Below the pieces are notes generated by a model. It had not been told where the DNA came from. It searched no databases and saw only the letters and a list, made by a program, of their open reading frames with translations. Made by a program: the position numbers and the translations under genes. Positions 45,206-59,288 of a DNA stretch of 64,000 nt are shown one piece after another. How positions within the stretch are numbered: position 1 is the first letter of the stretch; every line of letters begins with the position of its first letter. The stretch comes from Promethearchaeota archaeon (GTDB taxonomy: Archaea; Asgardarchaeota; Lokiarchaeia; Sigyniarchaeales; SOKP01): NCBI GenBank assembly GCA_048939995.1, contig JBHLOY010000002.1, positions 192,001 to 256,000 on the forward strand. The letters run 5' to 3'.

Positions 45206-46156
45206 TTAGATATTGAATCCATCGTCAAAATCATCAAACTCATCCTCATCGATTTCAACATCAAATCTCTCTACTTCCTTTTCTTTAAGCTTTTTCTTAA
45301 GTTCTCTTCGTTCTTTGTGGGTTTGATCATAACGTTTAATGTAGACTTTTTCATATTTTTCCCGTAGTTTCTCTACACTCTCAACTTGTCCAATTTTATC
45401 TTGTAATCCATCTTCAAAAAACCAATTCCTTTTAAATTCTTTAGCTGGAATCCCAACATAAATATAATTGTCTTTTAGTATTTGCCCTACTGTTGTAACT
45501 GAATTAGCTGCTAGTACACTTCGTTTTCCAATATGAGTTCCTGGCATTACTATTGCATGTGAACCGATTCTGACATCATCTTCGATTACAGTCTTGCGAA
45601 TAATTAGTAAATTGCCTATAATAACGCTAGATTGGATTATAGCCCCTTGACCAACAACGCAATTCTTTCCGAACTCTATAAATTCTGTATCCACCCAACC
45701 TTCAAAGAGCGAATTTGAAAACTTGGTTTTAACAGAGAAGACTTTAAAACAAACATTATCTAAAAAGGGGAACGGAAATTTATGTGCCAACCAAAAAGGA
45801 AATCTCTTAATTGTGCTTCTCAGGCTCCAATAACGATAGTCTTTATCAGATCGATGCCTAAGGAAAGTCCCTTGACGTGGTTTATGAATTGCATTTACTA
45901 TTACAAGAATAATTTTTGCAAAAAAGATAGCAGAAAATACCGCAGTAACATACATAACAAAACATAAGAGTGGTAAAAAAGTATAGAAATGAATTGGTCT
46001 TACATAATCCCATAACCATTGCCAATATGCCCAAAATTCAAGCAAAATTGGCAAAATTGAAGCCCAAATTATAATAATATAAAATGTTAAATATCGTTTC
46101 TTCACTAAAACCGTCGGTAAGAACGGCCCTACCCTCATCGTATTCGGAACTGACAT
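45206..46156 (-). CDS. TM + left-handed beta-helix acyltransferase-like protein, module C
   Basis: Two TMs, HKP..G.F.R...D.DYRYW, hexapeptide repeats, Y.GIPA. Confidence 0.82.
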   Translation of the reverse strand: MSVPNTMRVGPFLPTVLVKKRYLTFYIIIIWASILPILLEFWAYWQWLWDYVRPIHFYTFLPLLCFVMYVTAVFSAIFFAKIILVIVNAIHKPRQGTFLRHRSDKDYRYWSLRSTIKRFPFWLAHKFPFPFLDNVCFKVFSVKTKFSNSLFEGWVDTEFIEFGKNCVVGQGAIIQSSVIIGNLLIIRKTVIEDDVRIGSHAIVMPGTHIGKRSVLAANSVTTVGQILKDNYIYVGIPAKEFKRNWFFEDGLQDKIGQVESVEKLREKYEKVYIKRYDQTHKERRELKKKLKEKEVERFDVEIDEDEFDDFDDGFNI

Positions 46157-46162
46157 ACTTTT

Positions 46163-48055
46163 TCAATCCTCCTTTGTTTTTACTAACTTAAGTTTATCCT
46201 CATCAATATTTACATCATGCTCTACTTCAAACTTCTCAGAATCGTCAACTTCTCTCTTTATTATGATATCCCGTCGTTCTTCAGCATATTTGTTCTCTTT
46301 CAACTTAATTGCTGGAATTCCAAAATATACCCATGCAGGTTCTAGAATTTGATTGACTGTGGTACTTGAAATTGCACCGATGACAGAATCATTCCCCATA
46401 ATTGTTCCTGGGGCTATAGTTGTATGGCCACCCACTAAGACGTAATCTCCAAATATTACCGGCTTTACAATTAAATATTTGCCAACAATCATCGAGGACA
46501 TGATTGTAGCACCTTGACCTATCAAATTCTTTCTTCCAAATGTGATAAATTCACCATCACACCACGCATCATTAAGATGACTCGAGAAATCCATTTTAGT
46601 ACCAAACCATCTAAATGCTAGTACATCTAACCAAGGAAGTGGAGAATTTCTTAAAAGCCACAAAGCAATTTTCTTTAATTCTGTACGAAGAAGCCAAAAT
46701 TCATAGTCCATATCTCTGAGTTGAGCCAGAAAGATTCCCTCCTTAGGATGGTGGATTAGATTTACAAGAATTAATAATAATTTGCTAAAAAGTAAAACTC
46801 CAAGAATAAATATGTATGACATAAAAAGAATTGCTATTGGAAGATATAAAAGTGAGTTTATATGAAAATCATATAGATATAAATGCCATCCTTTTGTTAA
46901 TTCATACCAAAACAAGCAAATAAACAGGCCTGTCAACCATAAGATTGGCAAGTATACTGCTAAGAATTTAATATTGACTCTACTTATTGCACTTGTTGTA
47001 GTAAAATCCAAAGCAAGATCTTCACTTTTTAGATTATCAATATCAATATGTTCAAGATCATCAACATCATGCAATTCTTCTTCTAAGTCTTCCTCTTCTT
47101 CAAATTCCTCTACTTTGATAAGAGATTCTTTTTCATTTTCTTTCATTTTTTCTTTTTTCTTTTTCTTGATATAATTTTCTGGATTTTCGTTTTTTATTAA
47201 ATCTTCTTCAGTTAACCCTAACCAATTCATAATCTTTTTCTTAAAAATCTTTCTCAGAGGAAGACCAAAATAATAATTGTTTTCTCCCTTGAGAACGCTA
47301 TGTGCATTAGTAGATGACAATGGAAGTAAATAAGCATCGCTTTTAATCTCAGAACCTGGTCCAATCTGATTCATAGCAGCAAGAGTAACATTGTCTCGCA
47401 AATAAATTCGAAAATAATTAATATTACCAAATATTCCAGTAAGAATGTGACTAGCTAATGTCGAATTAACTCCTATATAGCAGTTTTTGCCCACGTCTAT
47501 AAACTTATCGGACCCTACCGACTCTTCTATTGTTGTACCCTTCCCTACCTTAGAATCAATCTGCCTAAGATACCACTTTGATATCCAAGGAAATGCTCCT
47601 TTATTAAAAACATTTTTCCCGTATTTATAAATAAAACTCCTTAAATGGTAATAGTTTGCAGTTTTACTCTTAATATTTCTGGGGATAATCCCATCTTTTG
47701 AAGGAGAAATCTTTTCTGTAATTGCCCAAAAAATTCGTGTGATGATTCCTATCAAAAGTAACCTAACCAAATAGCAGGCTATTATGACTAAGGGCATACA
47801 TAATAGAGAAAGTAAAGGTCCTAACTCCGTAAATATGGAAATGAAATTAGCCGTTTCCAAAAAATTAGGGAGAAAAATGAAGAGAACATAAGCAAAGAAT
47901 ATGAAGCCGGGTACTAGCCAAGAACCATAATAAATAATTAAAAAAATCGTAATATAGAGATGAAATTGAAGGCTAACTTCTTCCTTAACCACTTCTTCTT
48001 CATTATTATTATCTGAATCTTCATTCTTTCCTGAATCTTCAGACATTGTTTTCAT
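46163..48055 (-). CDS. fused TM-LbH modules A+B
   Basis: Two TM+hexapeptide units joined by an acidic linker. Confidence 0.82.
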   Translation of the reverse strand: MKTMSEDSGKNEDSDNNNEEEVVKEEVSLQFHLYITIFLIIYYGSWLVPGFIFFAYVLFIFLPNFLETANFISIFTELGPLLSLLCMPLVIIACYLVRLLLIGIITRIFWAITEKISPSKDGIIPRNIKSKTANYYHLRSFIYKYGKNVFNKGAFPWISKWYLRQIDSKVGKGTTIEESVGSDKFIDVGKNCYIGVNSTLASHILTGIFGNINYFRIYLRDNVTLAAMNQIGPGSEIKSDAYLLPLSSTNAHSVLKGENNYYFGLPLRKIFKKKIMNWLGLTEEDLIKNENPENYIKKKKKEKMKENEKESLIKVEEFEEEEDLEEELHDVDDLEHIDIDNLKSEDLALDFTTTSAISRVNIKFLAVYLPILWLTGLFICLFWYELTKGWHLYLYDFHINSLLYLPIAILFMSYIFILGVLLFSKLLLILVNLIHHPKEGIFLAQLRDMDYEFWLLRTELKKIALWLLRNSPLPWLDVLAFRWFGTKMDFSSHLNDAWCDGEFITFGRKNLIGQGATIMSSMIVGKYLIVKPVIFGDYVLVGGHTTIAPGTIMGNDSVIGAISSTTVNQILEPAWVYFGIPAIKLKENKYAEERRDIIIKREVDDSEKFEVEHDVNIDEDKLKLVKTKED

Positions 48056-48209
48056 CTGATTTAAGTTTGAAATGTATAAATAAATTGGTAATTAATTTTT
48101 ACTTAAAATTACTACACTATATTTATAATAGTTATTTTTTTTATCTTTTAAAGTTATATGTGTTAACATTTTCATGATTTTTTTGGATTTATAATAAGTT
48201 TCATCTGGA

Positions 48210-48614
48210 ATGAACATGAAAAGCATGAAAGAAATATGTAAAAATTGTGGAATCTGTTGTCAGAACACAGAAATGTTGTTATCAGAACAAGACATTCGGT
48301 TAATTGAAGAGAAATTGTTGAATATAACTAGAAATGATTTTACAGAATTAAATGAAAGAGGAATGCATCAATTAAAAAATAAAAATAGTCATTGTGTCTT
48401 TTTGGATAATAGCTCAAAAATGTGTACTATATACAAAATCAGACCCCAAGGTTGCAGATTTTATCCCATAGTATATGACTATAATAAAAAAGTGTGCCTT
48501 TATGATAGAGACTGCCCAAGGGTTAAAAAATTTTACTTAGATGACTATAAATTCAAAAAAGTATGCGAAAAAATTAAAAATTTTATTAAATCGGGATTAA
48601 AAGTTAAATTATAA
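48210..48614 (+). CDS. YkgJ family zinc/Fe-S cysteine cluster protein
   Basis: CKNCGICC, CVFLD, CTIY..RP..CR.YP. Confidence 0.88.
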   Translation: MNMKSMKEICKNCGICCQNTEMLLSEQDIRLIEEKLLNITRNDFTELNERGMHQLKNKNSHCVFLDNSSKMCTIYKIRPQGCRFYPIVYDYNKKVCLYDRDCPRVKKFYLDDYKFKKVCEKIKNFIKSGLKVKL

Positions 48615-49608
48615 AAATGCTTTTAATGTGATCTCTATTTCTATAAGAATTAAATGCCTCTGAGAATTTTACTAAAGGAAATTCTTTCGAAATTAGATTT
48701 TTAACTTTAATCTTGCCCAACTTTATAGCTTCTATTGCTTTTTCGAAAGGACCACATCTGCTTGTATACAATATAATCTCTCTTACAACCAAATCTGTTA
48801 AATTTATCATTGAATCTAACCCATGTGTGCTCTTTATATGAATTTTACCTCGCGTTCTAGTAGAGGCAATGATGTCAGAAATTGCATTTGGATTTCCAGT
48901 AGCATCCAAAGTTATGTCCGCTCCTAAATTATTTGTAACTTCTTTAATGTAATTGGGTATGTTTTTTACTTGTAAACGGTTTATAAGAGTTTTAGCCCCT
49001 AAGTTTTTTGCTAATTTGAGTTTTGTTTCAGACCCATCAATTATAATTACTTCAAGGCCTTTAAGAATAGCGATTTGAGTAATTAATAAACCCAATTTCC
49101 CCGCACCAAAAATCGCTATAGTTCGATCCTGATTCCCTATAGGCATCATTTCAAACGTCTGATAAGCCGCGGCTAAGGGTTCGATAAAGGAAGCTTCCTT
49201 AAATGAAATATTTTCAGGAACTTCATGTAATAAATAGGAATCGACTGCAATATAATTAGCGAAAGCCCCATCAATGTCGATTCCTATAGCTTTTCGCGAT
49301 ACACATTGGGAGAAAATCTTCTGTTGACAAAAATTACAATCAAAATCAATGTTAGCATTTATTTCAGAGGTAACTTTTTTCCCCAGCCACTTAGTACTAA
49401 CTTTCCTTCCTAGCTCTACAATTTCGCCTGAAAATTCATGCCCCAAAACAATTGGTACAGGTGTACTTAACTCTCCTTTTGAGATTGCTAAATCAGTTCC
49501 ACATATTCCCGCAACTTTAACTTCAATTAAAACTTGATTAGCATTGATCTTAGGCTTTTGAAATTCTTTTAATGCTAATTCTTTTCCATCGAATACTATG
49601 GCTTTCAT
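48604..49608 (-). CDS. zinc-dependent medium-chain alcohol dehydrogenase
   Basis: GICGTD, GHEFSG, EPLAAA, GAGKLG, SRCGPF. Confidence 0.9.
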   Translation of the reverse strand: MKAIVFDGKELALKEFQKPKINANQVLIEVKVAGICGTDLAISKGELSTPVPIVLGHEFSGEIVELGRKVSTKWLGKKVTSEINANIDFDCNFCQQKIFSQCVSRKAIGIDIDGAFANYIAVDSYLLHEVPENISFKEASFIEPLAAAYQTFEMMPIGNQDRTIAIFGAGKLGLLITQIAILKGLEVIIIDGSETKLKLAKNLGAKTLINRLQVKNIPNYIKEVTNNLGADITLDATGNPNAISDIIASTRTRGKIHIKSTHGLDSMINLTDLVVREIILYTSRCGPFEKAIEAIKLGKIKVKNLISKEFPLVKFSEAFNSYRNRDHIKSIFII

Positions 49609-49770
49609 AATTTATAGAGTAATTTTAATATTATAAATAAAAAAATTTAATTTCTCAAATTAATATTAAGATTCAGATAAAGCATTTTTATGTAAAATAA
49701 GCCTTACTTACTTTAATTATCTTTATTTTATATCTATTAGAATTCTATTAAATATTATAAAAGTGATTTC

Positions 49771-50307
49771 ATGCAAAAAACTATATTAACATGGGAAATT
49801 ATTGGTATGGTCTTTATTACTTTTTTAGGATCTTTTCTCCATTTCCTCTTTGAATTATCAGGATATTTTCCACCGATTGGAGCGATAGCCGCAGTAAACG
49901 AAAGTGTATGGGAACATTTAAAACTTGGATATTGGCCATTAGTACTTTATTCTTTAATTGAGTATCGATTTATTAGAGATAAGTCAAATAATTTTGTAAT
50001 CGCAAAGGCAGTTGCTGCTTTTGTAATACCTGTCGTAATTATTGTGTTCTTTTACTCGTATACCGCAATTCTAGGGACTGATTTACTATTCTTGGATATT
50101 TTTAGCTTTGTTTTAGCAATTATAATTGCTCAATTAGTCAGTTATAAAATTTTAACTTTACCTAAAATCTCAAATGCGTACACCATTATTTCTTGGATAT
50201 CAATTATCACACTTGGAATCTTATTTGTAGTATTTACTTATTTTCCGCCTTACTTTCCTCTTTTTGAAGATCCAATAACAAATTCCTATGGAATTGTAAT
50301 TCACTAA
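49771..50307 (+). CDS. DUF6512-like membrane protein
   Basis: LHF.FE, VNESVWEHLKL, FTY.PP...LF.DP. Confidence 0.75.
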   Translation: MQKTILTWEIIGMVFITFLGSFLHFLFELSGYFPPIGAIAAVNESVWEHLKLGYWPLVLYSLIEYRFIRDKSNNFVIAKAVAAFVIPVVIIVFFYSYTAILGTDLLFLDIFSFVLAIIIAQLVSYKILTLPKISNAYTIISWISIITLGILFVVFTYFPPYFPLFEDPITNSYGIVIH

Positions 50308-50396
50308 TAGCCATTAGTTCTATATTCAAATCAATTTACTTTTTTAATTCTTTTACATATATAATTATCTGAAATAAAATTTATTTGATTTAACTC

Positions 50397-52037
50397 ATGA
50401 ATTCATTTGATTTTGATAAAGAGGTCCAAAAGTATTTTAATCGCTCATATTCTGATATAAAATGCGTAGATTGGGAAAAATGGTTAGATGTATCAAGCAG
50501 AGAAGAATATGAGGATTTATCGTTAAAATTATCTGGTTTATCCTCAGTTGATGGGCTTTTTGAGAAAATGCGTACCGAATTAACCGACTCAAAGCAAATA
50601 TCCTTGAATTTAGCAACATTTCTAAACAATTTTGATGATTCAAATATTCCAATATTATGTCATACTTCTGGGACGACTAATAGTGAGATTTCAGCTTTAA
50701 AATGGTTTAACATGTCTAGAGATATAGTTAAAAGAACTTGGGCCCCTGGTATGCAAGCTATTTTTGAATCGAGTGGTTTAAATAGAAGATTATCTGCAGT
50801 AATATTTGTTCCATCACGAATTAAAATAGATGGACTTCAATCATACGAGGGGCAAAAATATCTGTCTTTATATTCGTCAGAATTTTCACAGAGAGTTATG
50901 CTTTCACTAATAAAACCACAAAACTATAGCTTTTATGAGTATAAGAATTCAAAGAATTTGGAGGTTATTTCTAAAATTTTAAGTTTGGAAAAAATAGCTG
51001 TTATCTCTGCTCCCGCAATAACAATCTTAGGATGGGCAGATTTAGAAAAATTCCAAATTGGTTTAAGGAAATCTCTAGAAGATTTACCAGAAGAAAAAGT
51101 TCCAATTCTAGATGAATTATTAACAATTATTGAAAAAAAAGGTATAGAACAGGCATCTGAAATTATTCAAAAGAGACTCTCTGAAAAATTATCTAACGCG
51201 ACCCTAATATTTAGTATAAGTTCTCTTTCTGAACATAATTGGTCTATGATACGTAAATTTATGAGATGGGAAGAAGGTGGAGAACGATTTACTAATCTTT
51301 ATGTAGCCTCTGAGATTGGCCCATTTGCAGCTAGTATTTCAAAAGGAGATTTTAGGCTTTCACGTATGAATAGAATGTATGTTTTTCCCCTTACTTTGCC
51401 TGTCCTCGAATACGGAAACAAAAAAATGCGTATTTCCGAAATTTCAGATCAAACTGGTAAGCTCTTCATTTCAAGAATGGGTGATTCAAAGGCTTTAATA
51501 AATATAGATATTGGAGATATAATTACTGTCAGGAATTCAAATGGTCTACCCCAGATCGATGGAAACATCATTAGATCAAGCTTTCAGTTAAAATATGAAG
51601 TAAAATTATCAAACAAGGTTGAAATTCCAAATAAATTTAGGATTTTAGCTGGAGATTTTTTTTCCTTAAAAAATTTAATAATCAAACAACCGAGAAATTT
51701 GTTAAATTGTCTAAAAGCTAATTGTGAACTAGAAACTGATGCATTATTACTTCTACCAAAGGATGATCAGAGTTGGGATTTAGTTCTACCAGGAGATTTG
51801 AAATCAAACTGTATTAATGAAAAAAAAATATTTGAAATTATCTCAAAATGTCCAACTCAAGCAGATATTTATCAAGCACTCATAAACAATTCAATTAATC
51901 TAAAATTTATAGAAGATCAACCTGTTGATTTTTTGGCTACACGAGAAGAAATATTAAAGAAAGTAAGAGAAGGTCAAATGCCCAAGGGTATTTTAAAGAA
52001 GTGGCCCTTATATGTGATTTCCACTAGAAATCAATAA
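50397..52037 (+). CDS. GH3/PaaK-like adenylate-forming (ANL) enzyme
   Basis: HTSGTT P-loop, YVASEIG, IDIGDII match the three ATP-binding motifs of GH3/PaaK enzymes. Confidence 0.65.
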   Translation: MNSFDFDKEVQKYFNRSYSDIKCVDWEKWLDVSSREEYEDLSLKLSGLSSVDGLFEKMRTELTDSKQISLNLATFLNNFDDSNIPILCHTSGTTNSEISALKWFNMSRDIVKRTWAPGMQAIFESSGLNRRLSAVIFVPSRIKIDGLQSYEGQKYLSLYSSEFSQRVMLSLIKPQNYSFYEYKNSKNLEVISKILSLEKIAVISAPAITILGWADLEKFQIGLRKSLEDLPEEKVPILDELLTIIEKKGIEQASEIIQKRLSEKLSNATLIFSISSLSEHNWSMIRKFMRWEEGGERFTNLYVASEIGPFAASISKGDFRLSRMNRMYVFPLTLPVLEYGNKKMRISEISDQTGKLFISRMGDSKALINIDIGDIITVRNSNGLPQIDGNIIRSSFQLKYEVKLSNKVEIPNKFRILAGDFFSLKNLIIKQPRNLLNCLKANCELETDALLLLPKDDQSWDLVLPGDLKSNCINEKKIFEIISKCPTQADIYQALINNSINLKFIEDQPVDFLATREEILKKVREGQMPKGILKKWPLYVISTRNQ

Positions 52038-52122
52038 TCAATTGTCTGATTAATAAGTTATAAAAAAACAATATAAATTCCTTTTTGCCTTAAATTATAA
52101 GTAAAATAGAATGGTTTTCAGA

Positions 52123-52596
52123 ATGAAAGATAAATTCAATCTCGTTGGTACAAAGATTACTGAATTTGAATTACCAAATTCTCGAGGAGAAACAAAAAAT
52201 ATTCGAGGTTTACAAGGACAAAATGTGGTCCTTGTACTATTTAGGAGTAAAAACTGACCTTATGCAAAAGCTCATGCTCAGAAACTTAGTAAAGAATATG
52301 ATAAGTTTAAAGATTATAACGCAACACTTTTTACCATTTTACCTGATGATTTTGAGAGTGCTCAAATATTTGAAAAAAATTTTGCAAAGAATGTATACCC
52401 CATATTCTATGATGATACAAAAAAAGTTAATAAAATGTTAAAACAGGAAGTTAAACCTTTAAAACTAGGAAGAATGCCAGCCCTTCTTATTATAGATAAA
52501 GAAGGAATTATCAGATATGCATACTACAGCGATTCGATGTCAGATATCCCCGAGAATGAAGTTGTATTTGAAGTACTCAAAAATCTTAATAAATAA
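52123..52596 (+). CDS. peroxiredoxin-like (AhpC/TSA) protein with in-frame UGA, probable selenoprotein
   Basis: Hand translation ...EFELPNSRGE...VVLVLFRSKN-TGA(52255-52257)-PYAKAH...YPIFYD...MPALLIIDKEGIIRY...; frame stays open for 112 more codons; alternative in-frame ATG at 52111. Confidence 0.8.
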
Positions 52597-52806
52597 TATG
52601 ATTTGGTATGAATAAAATATAAAAAATTGTTGAATTTTATTCTAATAAGTTAGCCATACTTTACCAAATCAACCAATATTTTTACTTTAGAAATAGGAAC
52701 ACTTCTTAAATCTGGATTTGGGAGAAAAAGTATACTGCTGTTAAGCTAGTCAAATTTATTATAGTTATAACTATAATTTTAACTATAATTTATTCTTATA
52801 TATGAC

Positions 52807-53700
52807 TTATTTCAAAAAACGTGGATCACTTTCGAGAAATTTAATAGCCTTTAAGACACTTTTTTCCTTATCTTTTATCTCTAACATAATATCAAAATCA
52901 AATTTTTTAGTCTTTTTAATAAATTCTTTAAAGTGGTTAAGATTGACATTATCAGCATGCGTAGGTTTTCCTTTTTTGGGGTGTTGAGAGCTATAATGTA
53001 CAATTGGTTTTCCATCAATAGCCTTCCAAGTTTGAAGGGAAAGTTTAAAGGCACCTTGAAGAGAAAGGCCTGAATTAAAGCATTCATGATGATACACATC
53101 TAATATGAGAGGAATACCTTCAGTCTCACTAATCTTAACACATTCGCTTAAATTATAATTTTTGTCATCATTTTCAATCACATATCTCTTTTTAATCGAA
53201 GATTCCAATGTTTTATAAACTTTTTTAAATCTATTAATACTTGCACTTTTATCGCCATATACACCACCTATGTGGGTCATTATTTTAGCTGTCGAATCTA
53301 ATCTAAGTAAATCTAACACATTAGTATGATATTGTAATTCTTTAATACTATTTGCGACCACATTTGCATTTTTTGAATTTAAAACCGTATACTGTCCAGG
53401 ATGCATAGTTATTCTCATTTTATTCTGTTTAATATATTTCCCAATTTCTCTAAACTTAAGCTTGAAATAATCTTGCCAATCAAATTTCATAATTGGGTGC
53501 GAAGCAAATGGAATCAAATCAGATGTTATTCTAAAGAAAAATATTTTATTCTCACAATTATATTTAAGAATTTGGAGTAAGCAGTCCAAATTCCCTCCAA
53601 TAGTATTAATAAGTCGTTCTTCGGAATAATTCTTTAAGCGAAAGGTTCTACTACTCCTACATTTTAAACTTAAATTAATGCAGGGATATCCAATTTTCAT
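52807..53700 (-). CDS. uvsE: UV damage endonuclease
   Basis: IGYPC, FFRITS.LIP.ASHP, MHPGQY..LNS, H.GG, ENDD, D.YHH, HAD, MLE.K.KE. Confidence 0.95.
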   Translation of the reverse strand: MKIGYPCINLSLKCRSSRTFRLKNYSEERLINTIGGNLDCLLQILKYNCENKIFFFRITSDLIPFASHPIMKFDWQDYFKLKFREIGKYIKQNKMRITMHPGQYTVLNSKNANVVANSIKELQYHTNVLDLLRLDSTAKIMTHIGGVYGDKSASINRFKKVYKTLESSIKKRYVIENDDKNYNLSECVKISETEGIPLILDVYHHECFNSGLSLQGAFKLSLQTWKAIDGKPIVHYSSQHPKKGKPTHADNVNLNHFKEFIKKTKKFDFDIMLEIKDKEKSVLKAIKFLESDPRFLK

Positions 53701-53715
53701 TCTAATCGATTTTTT

Positions 53716-54567
53716 CTAGCCTTTTGAAATTATTTTATCTTTTCTCCTAGTATAAAGCTCTTCATATTTCTTTCCTAACTGCTCCATATCATGTTTTTGT
53801 TCAGCAATCACTTCTTCCAATCCTTCCTCAAAAAATACGTCTTTTTTATACTTTCTCGCAGGAGCGCCAAGATAAACCCATCCTTCTTCTAATTCCTGCC
53901 CAACAGTTGTAAGTGAGCTAGCAGCTAATACACAATTCTTATGAATGTGAGTTCCTGGCATAACAACAGAATGGACGCCGATCCTTACATTATCCTCGAT
54001 GATTGTTTTTCTAATAATCAGTAAGTTCCCAATGATTGTAGCAGATTGGATAATACTTGCTTGGCCACAAACTACGTTTTTTCCAAATTCTATAAACTCT
54101 GTATCACACCATGACTCAAAAAGTGAATTTGAAAGAGTTGTCTTAACTCCAAAGAATTTAAAGCAGAGATTATCTAAGAAAGGAAGCGGAAACTTATGAG
54201 CAACCCATATTGGCCACTTTTTAATAGTATTTCGAATACTCCAATAACGATAGTCACGATCCATTGGATCTCTAAGAAATGTGCCTTCACGAGGCTTATG
54301 CAGAAGATTAGCGCAAATTAATAAAAACTTAGCAATTAATAACGATGAAAAAACCAGTGAAACATACATAGTGAATATTAAAAGTGGTAGAAAAATAAGA
54401 AAATGCACAAACCTAGTCGTGTATAATGAACTCCAATACCACCAAAATTCGAACTGGATCACAAAAAGACTAAACCAAATTTCAAAGATGTATAGGATTA
54501 AATATTTTTTCTTTACTAATACTAGACTTGTATGAGGTCCTACCCGAAAATTTCCTGGTACAGACAT
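53716..54567 (-). CDS. TM-LbH module C (standalone)
   Basis: Paralog of 45206 (MSVP..RVGP, DYRYWS.R.TIK). Confidence 0.82.
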   Translation of the reverse strand: MSVPGNFRVGPHTSLVLVKKKYLILYIFEIWFSLFVIQFEFWWYWSSLYTTRFVHFLIFLPLLIFTMYVSLVFSSLLIAKFLLICANLLHKPREGTFLRDPMDRDYRYWSIRNTIKKWPIWVAHKFPLPFLDNLCFKFFGVKTTLSNSLFESWCDTEFIEFGKNVVCGQASIIQSATIIGNLLIIRKTIIEDNVRIGVHSVVMPGTHIHKNCVLAASSLTTVGQELEEGWVYLGAPARKYKKDVFFEEGLEEVIAEQKHDMEQLGKKYEELYTRRKDKIISKG

Positions 54568-55460
54568 TAATCCTCTTCTTCGTGATTATAATTATTATTT
54601 AATAAATTTTTTTTTTCATCATCGATATTAACTTCATGTTCAACTTCAACACTTGTTTCTTCTTCAACATCCCTCTTAAAAATTCTATCTCGTCTTTGTT
54701 GTGCATACTTGTTTGGTTTATACTTCATTGCCGGAAGTCCAAGATAGATCCAGCCAGGTTCTAAAAATTGGTTATAATTTGTATTTGTAAATGCGCCACT
54801 TACGGATTCTTCTCCAAAAATAGTGCCAGGAGAAACATTAGAAACTCCTCCTACTACCGTATAATCTTCAAAAATTACCTTCTTTATAATCAAATATTTT
54901 CCAACAACCATAGAGCTCATAACTATACTTCCTTGGCCTATAGTTATTTTCCTGCCGAACTTAATAAAATCTGTATCTACCCATGCATCTTGAAGATGAC
55001 TAGAGAAATCCATATGGACACCAAACCATCTAAAACCCCACATTACAATCCAGGGCAATGGACTATTTGTCATCAGCCATAATGCTAACTTCTTTAACTC
55101 GATTCGCAATCGCCAAAACTCAAAATCAGTATTCCCGGGCTCTGCTCTAAATACTCCCTCTTTTGGCTTATGTATCATATTTACGATTAATAAACATGCC
55201 TTTGAAAAAATTGCTATACCAAAAATAAAAATAAAGTATAATATAAAAAGCCAAAATGGAATCAGCAGCATACTAGCAATCCAATTATTTAGATATCGAG
55301 AAACATCAAAAAACACAGTAATTGCCATATATCCACTAATCCACAAAATTGGAATGTATAGAACAAGAAATTTCCAACTTATTCTACTTATTGCACTACT
55401 GGTGATAAAATCAATTGTATAGTCTATTTTATCATTTGTTTCGTCTTTAGCTTCACTCAT
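54567..55460 (-). CDS. TM-LbH module B (standalone)
   Basis: DF.TSSAISR, EFW..R.ELKK, MDFSSHL.DAW, MSSM.VGKYL; homologous to the C-halves of 46163 and 57468. Confidence 0.82.
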   Translation of the reverse strand: MSEAKDETNDKIDYTIDFITSSAISRISWKFLVLYIPILWISGYMAITVFFDVSRYLNNWIASMLLIPFWLFILYFIFIFGIAIFSKACLLIVNMIHKPKEGVFRAEPGNTDFEFWRLRIELKKLALWLMTNSPLPWIVMWGFRWFGVHMDFSSHLQDAWVDTDFIKFGRKITIGQGSIVMSSMVVGKYLIIKKVIFEDYTVVGGVSNVSPGTIFGEESVSGAFTNTNYNQFLEPGWIYLGLPAMKYKPNKYAQQRRDRIFKRDVEEETSVEVEHEVNIDDEKKNLLNNNYNHEEED

Positions 55461-55470
55461 CTTGCAAACT

Positions 55471-56352
55471 TCACCTTACTTTTTCCTCATTTTTCTTATC
55501 TCTGAGCTTTTCTGCCTTTTCAAAATCTGCTTCAGTTATATCTAAATAGTCTATTACTTTTTTTTTAAAGATACGACGCAATGGAGCACCAAAATAGTAA
55601 TTATCACCTTTTAGGATGTTAAATTTAGTCGCGCCACTCATCGGTAATAACCATGAGTTATCGTTTACTTCTGAACCAGGGCCAACACAATTAAATGCAC
55701 CAGCAGTAACATTATCACCAATTTTAACTCTAAAATAAGAAATATTACCAAATATCCCTTCTACAGCATGAGAACTGATCGCTCCTCCTATCCCAAAATA
55801 ACAATTCTTCCCAATAGTGACGAATCTATCAGCGCCTACATTCTCTTCGAGAGTAGTTCCTTTTCCGATTATATTGGTTCCAATAAAATTGTAAAGCCAC
55901 GTGATTAGCCAAGGAAAAGGACCTCTTATTATAGAATTTTTTGGATATTTTATAACAAAACTTCGAATATGATAATAATTTGCCGTTTTACTAGGAATGT
56001 TTCTAGGGATAATTCCATCCTTAGAAGGTGAAATTTTTTCAGTTGTCCTCCAAATACCTCGTGTGATAAGGGCCATGAAAAACACATGAACTAAATAACA
56101 TAATATGATTATCAATGGCATAAAAATTGAAGCTAAAAGCGGTTCCAGTCGCGTAAACAGCAAAATGAATTTATTTTCTTGCAAAAAATATGGTGAATAG
56201 AATAACATGACATACAGCATGAAAATAATTGCTGGAATAATGAACGACCCAAAATAAATTATGAAAAATAAAATCATATACCAATGAAACTGGAGATTTA
56301 TTTCTTCCTTAGCGATTCCTTTATCAGTTTCATTTATTTGAGTGGTTTTCAT
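55471..56352 (-). CDS. TM-LbH module A (standalone)
   Basis: SPSKDGIIPRNI, YYH.RSF, SHAVEGIFGNI; homologous to the N-halves of 46163 and 57468. Confidence 0.82.
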   Translation of the reverse strand: MKTTQINETDKGIAKEEINLQFHWYMILFFIIYFGSFIIPAIIFMLYVMLFYSPYFLQENKFILLFTRLEPLLASIFMPLIIILCYLVHVFFMALITRGIWRTTEKISPSKDGIIPRNIPSKTANYYHIRSFVIKYPKNSIIRGPFPWLITWLYNFIGTNIIGKGTTLEENVGADRFVTIGKNCYFGIGGAISSHAVEGIFGNISYFRVKIGDNVTAGAFNCVGPGSEVNDNSWLLPMSGATKFNILKGDNYYFGAPLRRIFKKKVIDYLDITEADFEKAEKLRDKKNEEKVR

Positions 56353-56530
56353 CTCTTAACTTATGCACATTTTTTTAAAGTTATCATAGAAATAATTATA
56401 TGAATATTATTATGAGTTCTTTGACTATTTATTATGATATAATTTAAAAATTTCCACACTATTGATTTTAGGAATAATATATTAAGAAAAAATAAAAGGT
56501 TAAATATTATATTTTATTAAAAATTTTGAA

Positions 56531-57367
56531 TCAATCTTTAGGTTTTTCTTTTTTAGGAAACCATGGTATAAATGAGCTAGTTCTCTTCTTGTATGCGGCA
56601 TATTCTTCATTCCCTTCGAATCTCTTATCTAATAATCGTACTCCTGATACTTTTATTATTTGAAACGTAATATATGCAGGGCCAATAAATGTTATAAATC
56701 CGAATGGGACAGCTAATGCTATTACAAAGAGACCCCACCATTGAGTTACTTCTCCAAAATAATTAGGATGTTGCGAATATTTCCATACACTTTTAGTCAT
56801 AATTCTGTTCTTGTTAGCTGGATTTTGCAAAAATTTATAAAGGGAATAATCTGCGATAGTTTCAAAGAGAAATCCTATTAACCAGATTATTGATCCTAAC
56901 CATAAAGTTACTCCTCCAAAATCTAATAAATTGGTTACAGGAGGATTGGCACTTATATTTACAAACCATACAGGGATACAAACGAGAAAAACTATAATTC
57001 CTTGGAATAAATAGACTTTAAAGAGACTTTTTAGAGCAACATTTTTTTTCCAACGTTCACGCATTGCTTTATATCGATAATCTTCAGGTTTTCCTCTATT
57101 TCTTATAAAAACATAGGTTGCTAGCCTAATCGCCCAGATTAATACTAATATCGTTACTATAATTTGACGAATGCAATAACTTGACGTGAATACCAGATTA
57201 AGTATAAGGCTTGTTAATGCAACAACAAAATAAGCAGGGCCATAAAATATGTCCATGATTGCATTATTTCTTTTTATTGTTCCGACTATAAAAGCAATGA
57301 ATATGTATATAAATAGTGCTAATGCTGAGTATCCAATTGTTGTTAACATAATTTCAATAGTTGTCAT
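56531..57367 (-). CDS. DUF1295 family (steroid 5-alpha-reductase-like) membrane protein
   Basis: WAIRL, EDYRY, E..AD, W.YSQHPNYFGE, YK.RTS.FIPW. Confidence 0.9.
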   Translation of the reverse strand: MTTIEIMLTTIGYSALALFIYIFIAFIVGTIKRNNAIMDIFYGPAYFVVALTSLILNLVFTSSYCIRQIIVTILVLIWAIRLATYVFIRNRGKPEDYRYKAMRERWKKNVALKSLFKVYLFQGIIVFLVCIPVWFVNISANPPVTNLLDFGGVTLWLGSIIWLIGFLFETIADYSLYKFLQNPANKNRIMTKSVWKYSQHPNYFGEVTQWWGLFVIALAVPFGFITFIGPAYITFQIIKVSGVRLLDKRFEGNEEYAAYKKRTSSFIPWFPKKEKPKD

Positions 57368-57467
57368 AAAAAATACGATTAAATATTAAAATCTTAAAAG
57401 ATGATTATTTGGAAAATATTTATAGTTTATATCTATTAAATAAAGATTTTAAGATTTTTTTTAGGAG

Positions 57468-59288
57468 CTACAGCTTTTTTTTTTTATCCTCTTCGATGTT
57501 TACTTCATGTTCAACATGAAACTTAACTTCTTCATCTACATCTTTTTTAACAATGATGTCCCTTCTCGTTTCGGCATATTTGTTCGGTTTTAGCTTTATT
57601 ACTGGTATTCCTATATAAATGTAGCCTGGCTCTAAAACTTGGTTTAGTGTGGTAATAGAGATAGCAGCAACAACCGTATCCTTTCCAACGATTGTTCCAG
57701 GGGCAATAGTTGTGTGACCTCCTACTAAAGCATAGTCATCTAGAATTATCCTAGAAATTATTAGATATTTCCCGATTACCATTGAGCTCATCAGATTTGC
57801 GCCTTGCCCAATCATTACTTTTCTCCCAAAATAGATAAACTCGCCATCGCACCATGCATCATATAGATAACTTGAATAATCCATTTTGATTCCAAACCAC
57901 TTAAAAGCAAGAGCATCAGCCCAAGGGATAGGGCAATTTCGCATTAGCCATAAAACAACTTTTTTTAACTCAGTACGCAAAAGCCAAAATTCGTAGTCCA
58001 TATCTCTGAGTTGAGCCAAAAAAATTCCTTCCCTAGGGCGATGAAATAAATTGACGAGGATGAGAAACAACTTACTATATAAAAAACAACCTAAAATGAA
58101 AGCAAAATATAGGAAGAATAACAGTGCGGGTAAGAAAAATACGAAGAGGATAGGGTTGGTTACGAACACTGTGTAGGTATAAAATAGGATCCCAACTTGT
58201 AATCCGCTAATCCAGAAGATAGGGAGATAAACTGCCAGAAATTTAATATTAATTCTACTAATTGCTGAGCTAGTAGTAAAATCAACAGTTAAATCTAATT
58301 CTTCATTTTTGATATCATCCTTCTGTTCTTCTTTTAATAATGGATTAGATTCACCTTGAAATTCGTTTAAGATTTTTTTCTTTTTATGCTTCTTGGATTT
58401 TTTATCAGGCACTAAAGTTTTTAAAGAAATCTTATTTTTATCCAATTCTTCTTGCGTTAAATTAAGATATCTCATGACTTTTTTATCAAATATACGTCTT
58501 AAGGGAATTCCGAAATAATAATTATGTTCTCCCTTTAGAACGCTATGCTTAGTGGCAGATGCCAAAGGTAATAGATAAGAATTATCTTTAATCTCTGTTC
58601 CAGGACCAATCTGATTGATCCCTGCTGTGGTAACATTATCTCCAACGTTGATTTGAAAGTATGCGATATTGCCAAAAATTCCTTCTACTAAGTGAGTAGC
58701 TAACGTCGAGCCTACAGCAAAATAACAATTTTTTCCTACAATTCCGAATTTATCATTTCCAACAGATTCCTCAAGTGTACTTCCCTTTCCAATAACCATT
58801 GAACCCACAAAATTAAATAGCCAATTAGAGAGCCATGGAAATAGTCCCTTAACGAACAAGTTCTTAGGATACTTAATGAGAAACGATCTAAGATGATAAT
58901 ATTTCTCAGTTTTACTTCTAATGTTACGTGGAATAATGCCACTTTTACTGGGGGACTTCTTTTCAGTATATCTCCATATTAAACGAGTGATTATTGCGAC
59001 AAATAATAATCTAATAAGGTAACATATAATCAAGACAATTGGCATCGTCAGAAATGCAATTAGCGGCTCAAGTTCGGTAAAAAGACTAACAATATCGGGT
59101 ATAGCTAAAAATTTTGGCAAAAAGAAAGCAAAAACATAGAACATAAATAGAGCGATGGGAACGAGAAAGGATGCTAAATAGATTGTTAATAAAATGACTA
59201 TAGCTGAAAAATATTGAACGCTTAGTTCTTCCCTCTGTACGGGAGGTTTTAACAGTTTAGATGCTTTTACTTGGGGTCTTGATTCCAT
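57468..59288 (-). CDS. fused TM-LbH modules A+B (second copy)
   Basis: Full-length paralog of 46163 with a basic/acidic linker. Confidence 0.82.
   Translation of the reverse strand: MESRPQVKASKLLKPPVQREELSVQYFSAIVILLTIYLASFLVPIALFMFYVFAFFLPKFLAIPDIVSLFTELEPLIAFLTMPIVLIICYLIRLLFVAIITRLIWRYTEKKSPSKSGIIPRNIRSKTEKYYHLRSFLIKYPKNLFVKGLFPWLSNWLFNFVGSMVIGKGSTLEESVGNDKFGIVGKNCYFAVGSTLATHLVEGIFGNIAYFQINVGDNVTTAGINQIGPGTEIKDNSYLLPLASATKHSVLKGEHNYYFGIPLRRIFDKKVMRYLNLTQEELDKNKISLKTLVPDKKSKKHKKKKILNEFQGESNPLLKEEQKDDIKNEELDLTVDFTTSSAISRINIKFLAVYLPIFWISGLQVGILFYTYTVFVTNPILFVFFLPALLFFLYFAFILGCFLYSKLFLILVNLFHRPREGIFLAQLRDMDYEFWLLRTELKKVVLWLMRNCPIPWADALAFKWFGIKMDYSSYLYDAWCDGEFIYFGRKVMIGQGANLMSSMVIGKYLIISRIILDDYALVGGHTTIAPGTIVGKDTVVAAISITTLNQVLEPGYIYIGIPVIKLKPNKYAETRRDIIVKKDVDEEVKFHVEHEVNIEEDKKKKL

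Follow-up and report, generated by a model that had tools for sequence, protein, structure and literature searches.

A split three-module membrane protein family of Lokiarchaeales related to the polymerisation domain of Pls/PosA synthetases, and its proposed acyltransferase function

The closest described systems to the genes considered here are the C-terminal membrane polymerisation domains of the Pls/PosA synthetases, which make the isopeptide-linked homopolymers epsilon-poly-L-lysine and delta-poly-L-ornithine; these domains are collected in NCBIfam as TIGR02353. As modelled by AlphaFold/RoseTTAFold, PosA combines six helices in the membrane with three left-handed beta-helix (LbH) domains of five turns, in an approximate threefold packing, and a beta-strand and two helices lie between each pair of transmembrane (TM) helices and its LbH (PMC10522769). 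No cryo-EM structure of a Pls was found in the literature and nothing was found under TIGR02353, nor were defined catalytic residues found for the Pls/PosA polymerisation domain. Sequence searches of the PDB with PosA and with AB3 and C3, two of the archaeal proteins described below, found no solved Pls-type membrane domain but only soluble LbH enzymes and adenylation domains. Apparent relatives of this membrane part are encoded as separable subunits in a 64,000-nucleotide stretch (the window; GCA_048939995.1, contig JBHLOY010000002.1, positions 192,001 to 256,000) of a 3.75-Mb, 98% complete metagenome-assembled genome (MAG) from a Lokiarchaeal member of the Promethearchaeota, where modules of three types, named A, B and C, are arranged in several gene sets. 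The reading preferred here, at a probability of roughly 0.6, is that these sets encode a heterotrimeric, single-site, membrane-anchored acyltransferase with a free thioester donor, probably an acyl-coenzyme A (acyl-CoA).

Once the A-B fusions AB1 and AB3 are split, the six open reading frames (ORFs) yield eight modules in total, three A, three B and two C, each made up of two strongly hydrophobic helices and then a hexapeptide-repeat region, and following one another in the order A, B, C along the minus strand (coordinates are in Table 1). Pairwise BLASTP gives 52-64% identity between modules of the same type (E 1e-100 to 1e-134), 19-28% between A and either B or C and 34-39% between B and C, and in a FastTree phylogeny of 182 modules the A, B and C clades are each supported at 99-100. 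The number, types and order of modules proposed by an earlier reading made from the letters alone (the sequence-only reading) are borne out in this way, and so are the two to three isoforms it suggested, the sets present being A2+B2+C2, AB3+C3 and AB1. Spacing within the sets is operon-like, with 10 nucleotides from A2 to B2, a 1-nucleotide overlap of B2 and C2 and 6 nucleotides from AB3 to C3. The hexapeptide family PF00132 is matched at or above its cut-off by A2, C2, AB3 and C3, just below it by AB1 (25.3 bits) and not at all by B2. Lysine and arginine together number 0-2 in the loop between TM1 and TM2 and 5-11 in the 40 residues past TM2, and because of this charge bias around the hairpin the N terminus and the beta-helix are predicted to be cytoplasmic. 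C3 has 673 homologs at E <= 1e-5, and among the best 120 of these, at 67-92% identity, the sources are all Asgard lineages. Database labels for the family are generic ('DapH/DapD/GlmU-related', 'acyltransferase', 'hypothetical') and no literature description of this module family was found.

The three types differ at the position where an LbH acyltransferase has its catalytic histidine. By hhalign (profile to sequence) the His of A1, A2 and A3 falls exactly on His115 of E. coli LacA, the general base of galactoside acetyltransferase. The local motifs in the module alignment are LATH in A1, ISSH in A2 and LASH in A3, with B showing MSS and C either IQSA or IQSS, and no His is present at the LacA His115 column in B1-3, C2 or C3 by the module alignment, and for the B profile by hhalign also; a His restricted to A had been read correctly from the letters. 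This His is invariant in 24 A-B fusions and is kept by every A module in 20 loci from 14 other genomes. Homotrimers of B or of C would be inactive, because both are without it.

Evidence for how the modules assemble comes from gene order and fusion. In those first 20 loci every set keeps the order of His-bearing A, then B, then C, whether it is encoded by three separate genes, by an A-B fusion with a C gene or (in genomes G147 and G040) by a C-A fusion with a B gene. A second, independent sample of 79 loci came from species-representative MAGs; it contains the C-A fusion plus B at 67 loci, the A-B fusion plus C at 8, A B C at 5, A-B alone at 6, A-B A-B at 3, and C A-B and C-A B B at one locus each. 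No adjacency contrary to the cyclic order A>B>C was found anywhere in the 99 loci (20 + 79) of other Lokiarchaeales MAGs, related genomes among which are not independent of one another. Natural C-A-B triple fusions exist (P0131 of 797 amino acids, P0280 and P0317, all from Promethearchaeota), and the subunits co-diverge, in that the partners of A3-like modules are always B3-like and C3-like, and those of A2-like modules B2-like and C2-like. Three different fusion states that all obey one cyclic order are to be expected if three unlike subunits form a ring of fixed handedness. An AlphaFold2 model of P0131, built from 47 colinear rows, has a mean predicted local distance difference (pLDDT) of 83.4 and a predicted template-modelling score (pTM) of 0.86, and in it every module runs TM-TM-strand-helix-helix-LbH, as in the PosA model; because the pTM is 0.86 across all 797 residues the three modules appear confidently placed relative to each other. 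Foldseek finds its best matches in CoA-dependent maltose and galactoside O-acetyltransferases (Maa/LacA type). Cyclic order, the A-B, C-A and C-A-B fusions, co-divergence and the modelled fold of the triple fusion together strongly suggest an asymmetric A:B:C heterotrimer, the assembly that the sequence-only reading had put forward.

The relation to Pls/PosA is seen from both directions. TIGR02353 is the best or near-best NCBIfam match for seven of the eight modules (E 5e-13, for AB3, to 1e-3), and its match on B2 spans residues 61-268, from TM2 through the end of the LbH. Scores are 17-48 bits for the window proteins and 54 bits for the triple fusion P0131, as against 471-635 bits for true Pls/PosA proteins and a curated cut-off of 423.1 bits. 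Conversely, a profile of 11 modules of the source genome, searched against 1.84 billion representative proteins, drew 6559 proteins at E <= 1e-3, and the best 150 of these include four (P0263, P0267, P0271 and P0272) that lie above the TIGR02353 cut-off, carry adenylation or thiolation domains and each match the module profile in three stretches at E of about 1e-30 to 1e-32. The Pls/PosA matches to this profile start in the TM hairpin and take in the LbH. Plasmid records supplied three further annotated Pls/PosA genes for the comparison, one of them being the PosA of A. baumannii, with an adenylation domain identical to PDB 8G95. In the seven Pls/PosA proteins so assembled a His stands at the catalytic column only in module 3 (motif QTHLFED), and by hhalign it also lies on LacA His115. 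The A profile scores best with Pls module 3 (98, versus 91 and 55), and B and C score best with Pls modules 1 and 2 and worst with module 3. The claimed resemblance to the C-terminal domains of Pls is thus supported both by the family match and by the retrieval of true Pls/PosA proteins, and scoring against TIGR02353 speaks for homology but not for membership. The likeness is confined to the membrane catalytic part, and on score, on the single polypeptide and on adenylation and thiolation domains the window proteins fall outside the Pls/PosA family. Judged by its sequences the putative complex shares ancestry with the Pls/PosA polymerisation domain, and also its design of one His per three modules.

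For the acyltransferase reading the following course would apply. Each set (A2+B2+C2; AB3+C3; AB1 with a borrowed C) would form one membrane-anchored pseudo-threefold body of six TM helices, one hairpin per module, with three cytoplasmic left-handed beta-helices packed like the trimer of an LbH acyltransferase. A alone would provide the general-base His, B and C acting as structural or substrate-binding partners, and because only A supplies that residue just one of the subunit interfaces would hold an active site, and there an acyl group would pass from a free thioester donor to an acceptor at the membrane or within it. That the subunits assemble 1:1:1 with one active site, and what donor and acceptor they would use, we infer from the comparisons given here. 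As to the donor, adenylation and thiolation domains are absent from the module ORFs, with no AMP-binding or PP-binding match in Pfam or NCBIfam, and neither PF00550 (the PP-binding carrier) nor PF01648 (the ACPS-type phosphopantetheinyl transferase, PPTase) was found in the 98% complete source genome, which has 17 AMP-binding ligase genes of acyl-CoA-synthetase size. A carrier-tethered donor of the Pls type is unlikely because the genome is without carrier and PPTase, and a free thioester is most likely because the complex is without an adenylation or carrier domain. A free CoA thioester would be the economical choice, its pantetheine arm being the one that a carrier domain also offers. Because of the same absences neither the amide-ligase chemistry of the sequence-only reading nor any poly-amino-acid chemistry is supported, and the products suggested there, an envelope polymer or modified lipids, are a guess.

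Those absences also bear on whether the sets might be true Pls-like polymerases, in which a free-standing enzyme would activate amino acids or some other monomer, and A:B:C would couple these iteratively and extrude the polymer through the six-helix bundle, several isoforms then giving several polymers. We regard this as unlikely. It draws support from the only characterised members of the module family, Pls/PosA, being polymerases (PMC10522769), from the single-His design held in common with them, and from the hhalign pairing of A with the His-bearing Pls module and of B and C with the other two. In bacteria, too, the loading enzyme can be separate from the membrane part: on the Pseudonocardia plasmid NZ_CP012185.1 (L004:2441-6414) a Pls/PosA gene of only 796 amino acids has a separate AMP-binding gene before it. 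However, besides the missing carrier and PPTase, no adenylating gene is conserved beside the operons. The 546-amino-acid protein of the window lies near ESM Atlas clusters partly carrying GH3 or AMP-binding families, a feature-level lead only that would fit a free-standing activating enzyme; it matches nothing in Pfam, NCBIfam or the PDB, neighbours the sets at only 6 of some 100 loci, and was set aside as an activating enzyme for want of support. A bolder version, in which the sets would be carrier-independent heterotrimeric membrane polymerases, each building a distinct, hitherto unseen envelope polymer or lipid-linked chain and exporting it by way of its six-helix bundle, and bacterial Pls/PosA an offshoot of an older LbH machine fused to non-ribosomal peptide synthetase (NRPS) parts, seems to us decidedly doubtful.

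Several observations weigh against the acyltransferase reading or against parts of it. The FastTree phylogeny places the Pls modules in one group apart from the Lokiarchaeal modules, with A not beside Pls module 3, and because the Pls modules stay together the A/B/C split is possibly an independent triplication. AB3 folded alone gives a pLDDT of 63 and a pTM of 0.45 from a shallow alignment, which may be what the low confidence reflects, and this model bears on pairing in neither direction. The predicted trimer-like packing and the interface position of the His lean on the pTM and on the published PosA model. No third C-type gene was found in the source genome and AB1 has no adjacent C, as is also the case for fusions of the A1/B1 type in genomes G195 and G049. 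In an A' subfamily (motif xHLWD, from C-A plus B sets) Gln replaces the His in 11 of 28 modules (motif LLTNQLWD; loci L028, L030, L032, L034, L035, L039, L041, L048, L050, L051 and L052), and therefore the His is not universally required; some A' sets may be inactive or work differently, the A type of the window being unaffected. Operon surroundings in distant genera show no functionally telling neighbour conserved beyond close relatives, the neighbours there being unrelated housekeeping genes (ERCC4, short-chain dehydrogenase/reductase (SDR), HypF, aconitase/isopropylmalate isomerase, PfkB, S-adenosylmethionine synthetase, acyl-CoA dehydrogenase, LSm and others).

The A' modules with Gln, like the loss of the His in two of every three modules, would suit a membrane scaffold or pseudoenzyme mostly without catalytic function, retained as an LbH heterotrimer for a structural or regulatory role in the manner of the gamma-carbonic-anhydrase-like (gamma-CA-like) subunits of mitochondrial complex I. 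In the PDB, gamma-CA subunits of complex I are matched by C3 (E 3e-6 to 1e-5), and in G147 and G040 one C-A plus B set follows a gene like NuoD or the hydrogenase large subunit. Even so a scaffold is very unlikely for the window sets, given a His that does not vary in A of the window type across either the fusions or the sampled loci; the hydrogenase neighbour is not general, and the aligned column did not show the three His that bind Zn in gamma-CA, although no explicit test for them was made. A gamma-carbonic-anhydrase assignment as such was set aside, as TIGR02353 outscores its NCBIfam matches and conservation of His is confined to one column.

The family is widespread within its order. A C3 query finds matches at E <= 1e-20 in 40/40 sampled genomes of its own family and 3/3 of a sister family, with no match at that threshold in 157 genomes of other Asgard families; the module profile gives weak matches in two further families and counts at least 11 modules per genome in 29 of 43 Lokiarchaeales genomes. 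Other arrangements are seen in places. One genome (G113; L022:14058-15922, minus strand) has tandem A genes before B and C, as A A B C. On contig 10 of the source genome (L001:7309-8904, minus) a two-gene pair adjoins a metallophosphoesterase gene and encodes first a His-bearing module of 279 amino acids, whose TIGR02353 match falls on the third module of that profile (positions 480-695, E 1e-10), and then one of 249 amino acids with Phe at the His column. Contig 13 (L003:7421-8227, minus) has a lone A-like module of 268 amino acids with the motif LSSH and no B or C nearby, and it falls in a 22-row clade of single-module proteins. Genomes of the sister family (f2; L017:8221-9893 and L018:8290-10488) have only two-gene sets, an A-like His module and then one B/C-like module, the latter with a C-terminal extension of about 140 amino acids in L018. 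Because of these two-gene sets, three distinct subunits are not universal. That A, B and C might be three independent enzymes, membrane acetyltransferases that each form a homotrimer, act on different substrates and merely lie clustered, fits with LbH acyltransferases being mostly homotrimers and with the lone module, the contig 10 pair and the two-gene sets of f2, yet is extremely improbable when the catalytic His is missing from B and C, the A-B, C-A and C-A-B fusions fix the stoichiometry, and over about 100 loci the cyclic order is invariant and the sets co-diverge.

Table 1. Positions in the window of the module genes, candidate catalytic His codons and neighbouring genes
Feature	Positions	Strand	Description
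AB1	57468-59288	minus	606 aa A-B fusion; A part 58389-59288, B part 57468-58388
AB1 His199	58692-58694		His codon
DUF1295 membrane protein	56531-57367	minus	steroid-reductase / ICMT / PEMT-like; Pfam PF06966, E 2e-62; between AB1 and A2
A2	55471-56352	minus	293 aa, His-bearing module, 2 TM + LbH
A2 His195	55768-55770		His codon
B2	54567-55460	minus	297 aa, module without His
C2	53716-54567	minus	283 aa, module without His
UvdE	52807-53700	minus	UV-damage endonuclease
546-aa orphan protein	50397-52037	plus	
Zn-dependent alcohol dehydrogenase (Zn-ADH)	48604-49608	minus	overlaps CxxCxxCC gene
CxxCxxCC gene	48210-48614	plus	PF03692 (Pfam); divergent from AB3
AB3	46163-48055	minus	630 aa A-B fusion; A part 47126-48055, B part 46163-47125
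AB3 His203	47447-47449		His codon
C3	45206-46156	minus	316 aa, module without His, acidic tail

Among the neighbours of the sets the DUF1295 protein could be a partner, a possible but weakly supported candidate: a homolog is near module sets in 4 of the 23 first loci (4 genera) and in 1 of the 79 further loci, and in L019 it comes directly after C. The CxxCxxCC and Zn-ADH genes accompany sets of the AB3-C3 type in 18 loci of related genomes. Recurrence of this pair, of DUF1295 and of the 546-amino-acid gene beside the sets may be synteny alone. UvdE starts 15 nucleotides past C2 on the same strand, an arrangement retained in just 3 close relatives, and AB3 comes 5.7 kb farther along the minus-strand order.

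What makes the family of wider use is that its members deliver the Pls/PosA polymerisation domain as separable subunits with one conserved His, the likely catalytic residue, in a single module. Because the subunits are separable and the candidate His is one, the mechanism can be tested by mutation and by reconstitution from parts. The family is conserved (43/43 sampled Lokiarchaeales genomes) and membrane-located, and so may make or modify components of the envelope or of the lipids in those archaea that stand closest to eukaryotes. A cyclic order kept strictly across split and fused forms would furthermore make it a natural example of a homotrimer becoming an obligate heterotrimer.

Set beside known systems the sets share something with each. 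In mitochondrial complex I the gamma-CA and CA-like subunits form a membrane-attached LbH heterotrimer in which most sites are degenerate, and the Lokiarchaeal sets are likewise membrane-attached LbH proteins with most sites degenerate and, as argued above, probably heterotrimeric. In contrast, the complex I subunits have Zn-His site chemistry, have no 2-TM hairpin each and belong to a respiratory complex, whereas no respiratory-complex partner is conserved beside the Lokiarchaeal sets. To LacA and Maa the likeness is in the LbH fold (the best Foldseek matches), in the position of the catalytic His and in the hexapeptide Pfam matches, although LacA and Maa form soluble homotrimers whose three active sites are equal, and the Lokiarchaeal subunits each have a 2-TM hairpin and a two-helix linker, the His being found in one type of three.

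The search with the module profile also drew three-module proteins of 650-680 amino acids without loading domains (P0213, P0230 and P0270), and a metagenomic one of 960 amino acids (P0264) that has an N-terminal SDR domain in place of the NRPS loading domains. At 168-184 bits these are below the TIGR02353 cut-off and, like the Lokiarchaeal sets, they are membrane LbH triples with no NRPS loading and one conserved His, but in those of 650-680 amino acids one polypeptide carries all three modules and the second of them has the His (motif LLPHA), and the tree groups them with the Pls modules and not with the Lokiarchaeal ones. Pls and PosA themselves have N-terminal adenylation and thiolation domains, which the Lokiarchaeal modules are without, in a genome without carrier or PPTase; their unit is one polypeptide, a form seen only in the rare relatives P0131, P0280 and P0317 of a Lokiarchaeal unit otherwise split over two or three genes; and their His module is the third, whereas in Lokiarchaeales it is first (A-B-C) or second (C-A-B). 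The Lokiarchaeal family is moreover archaeal and has many paralogous sets per genome. What the two have in common is the unit of three modules of 2 TM, linker and LbH, each running TM-TM-strand-helix-helix-beta-helix, of which a single one holds the His aligned to His115 of LacA.

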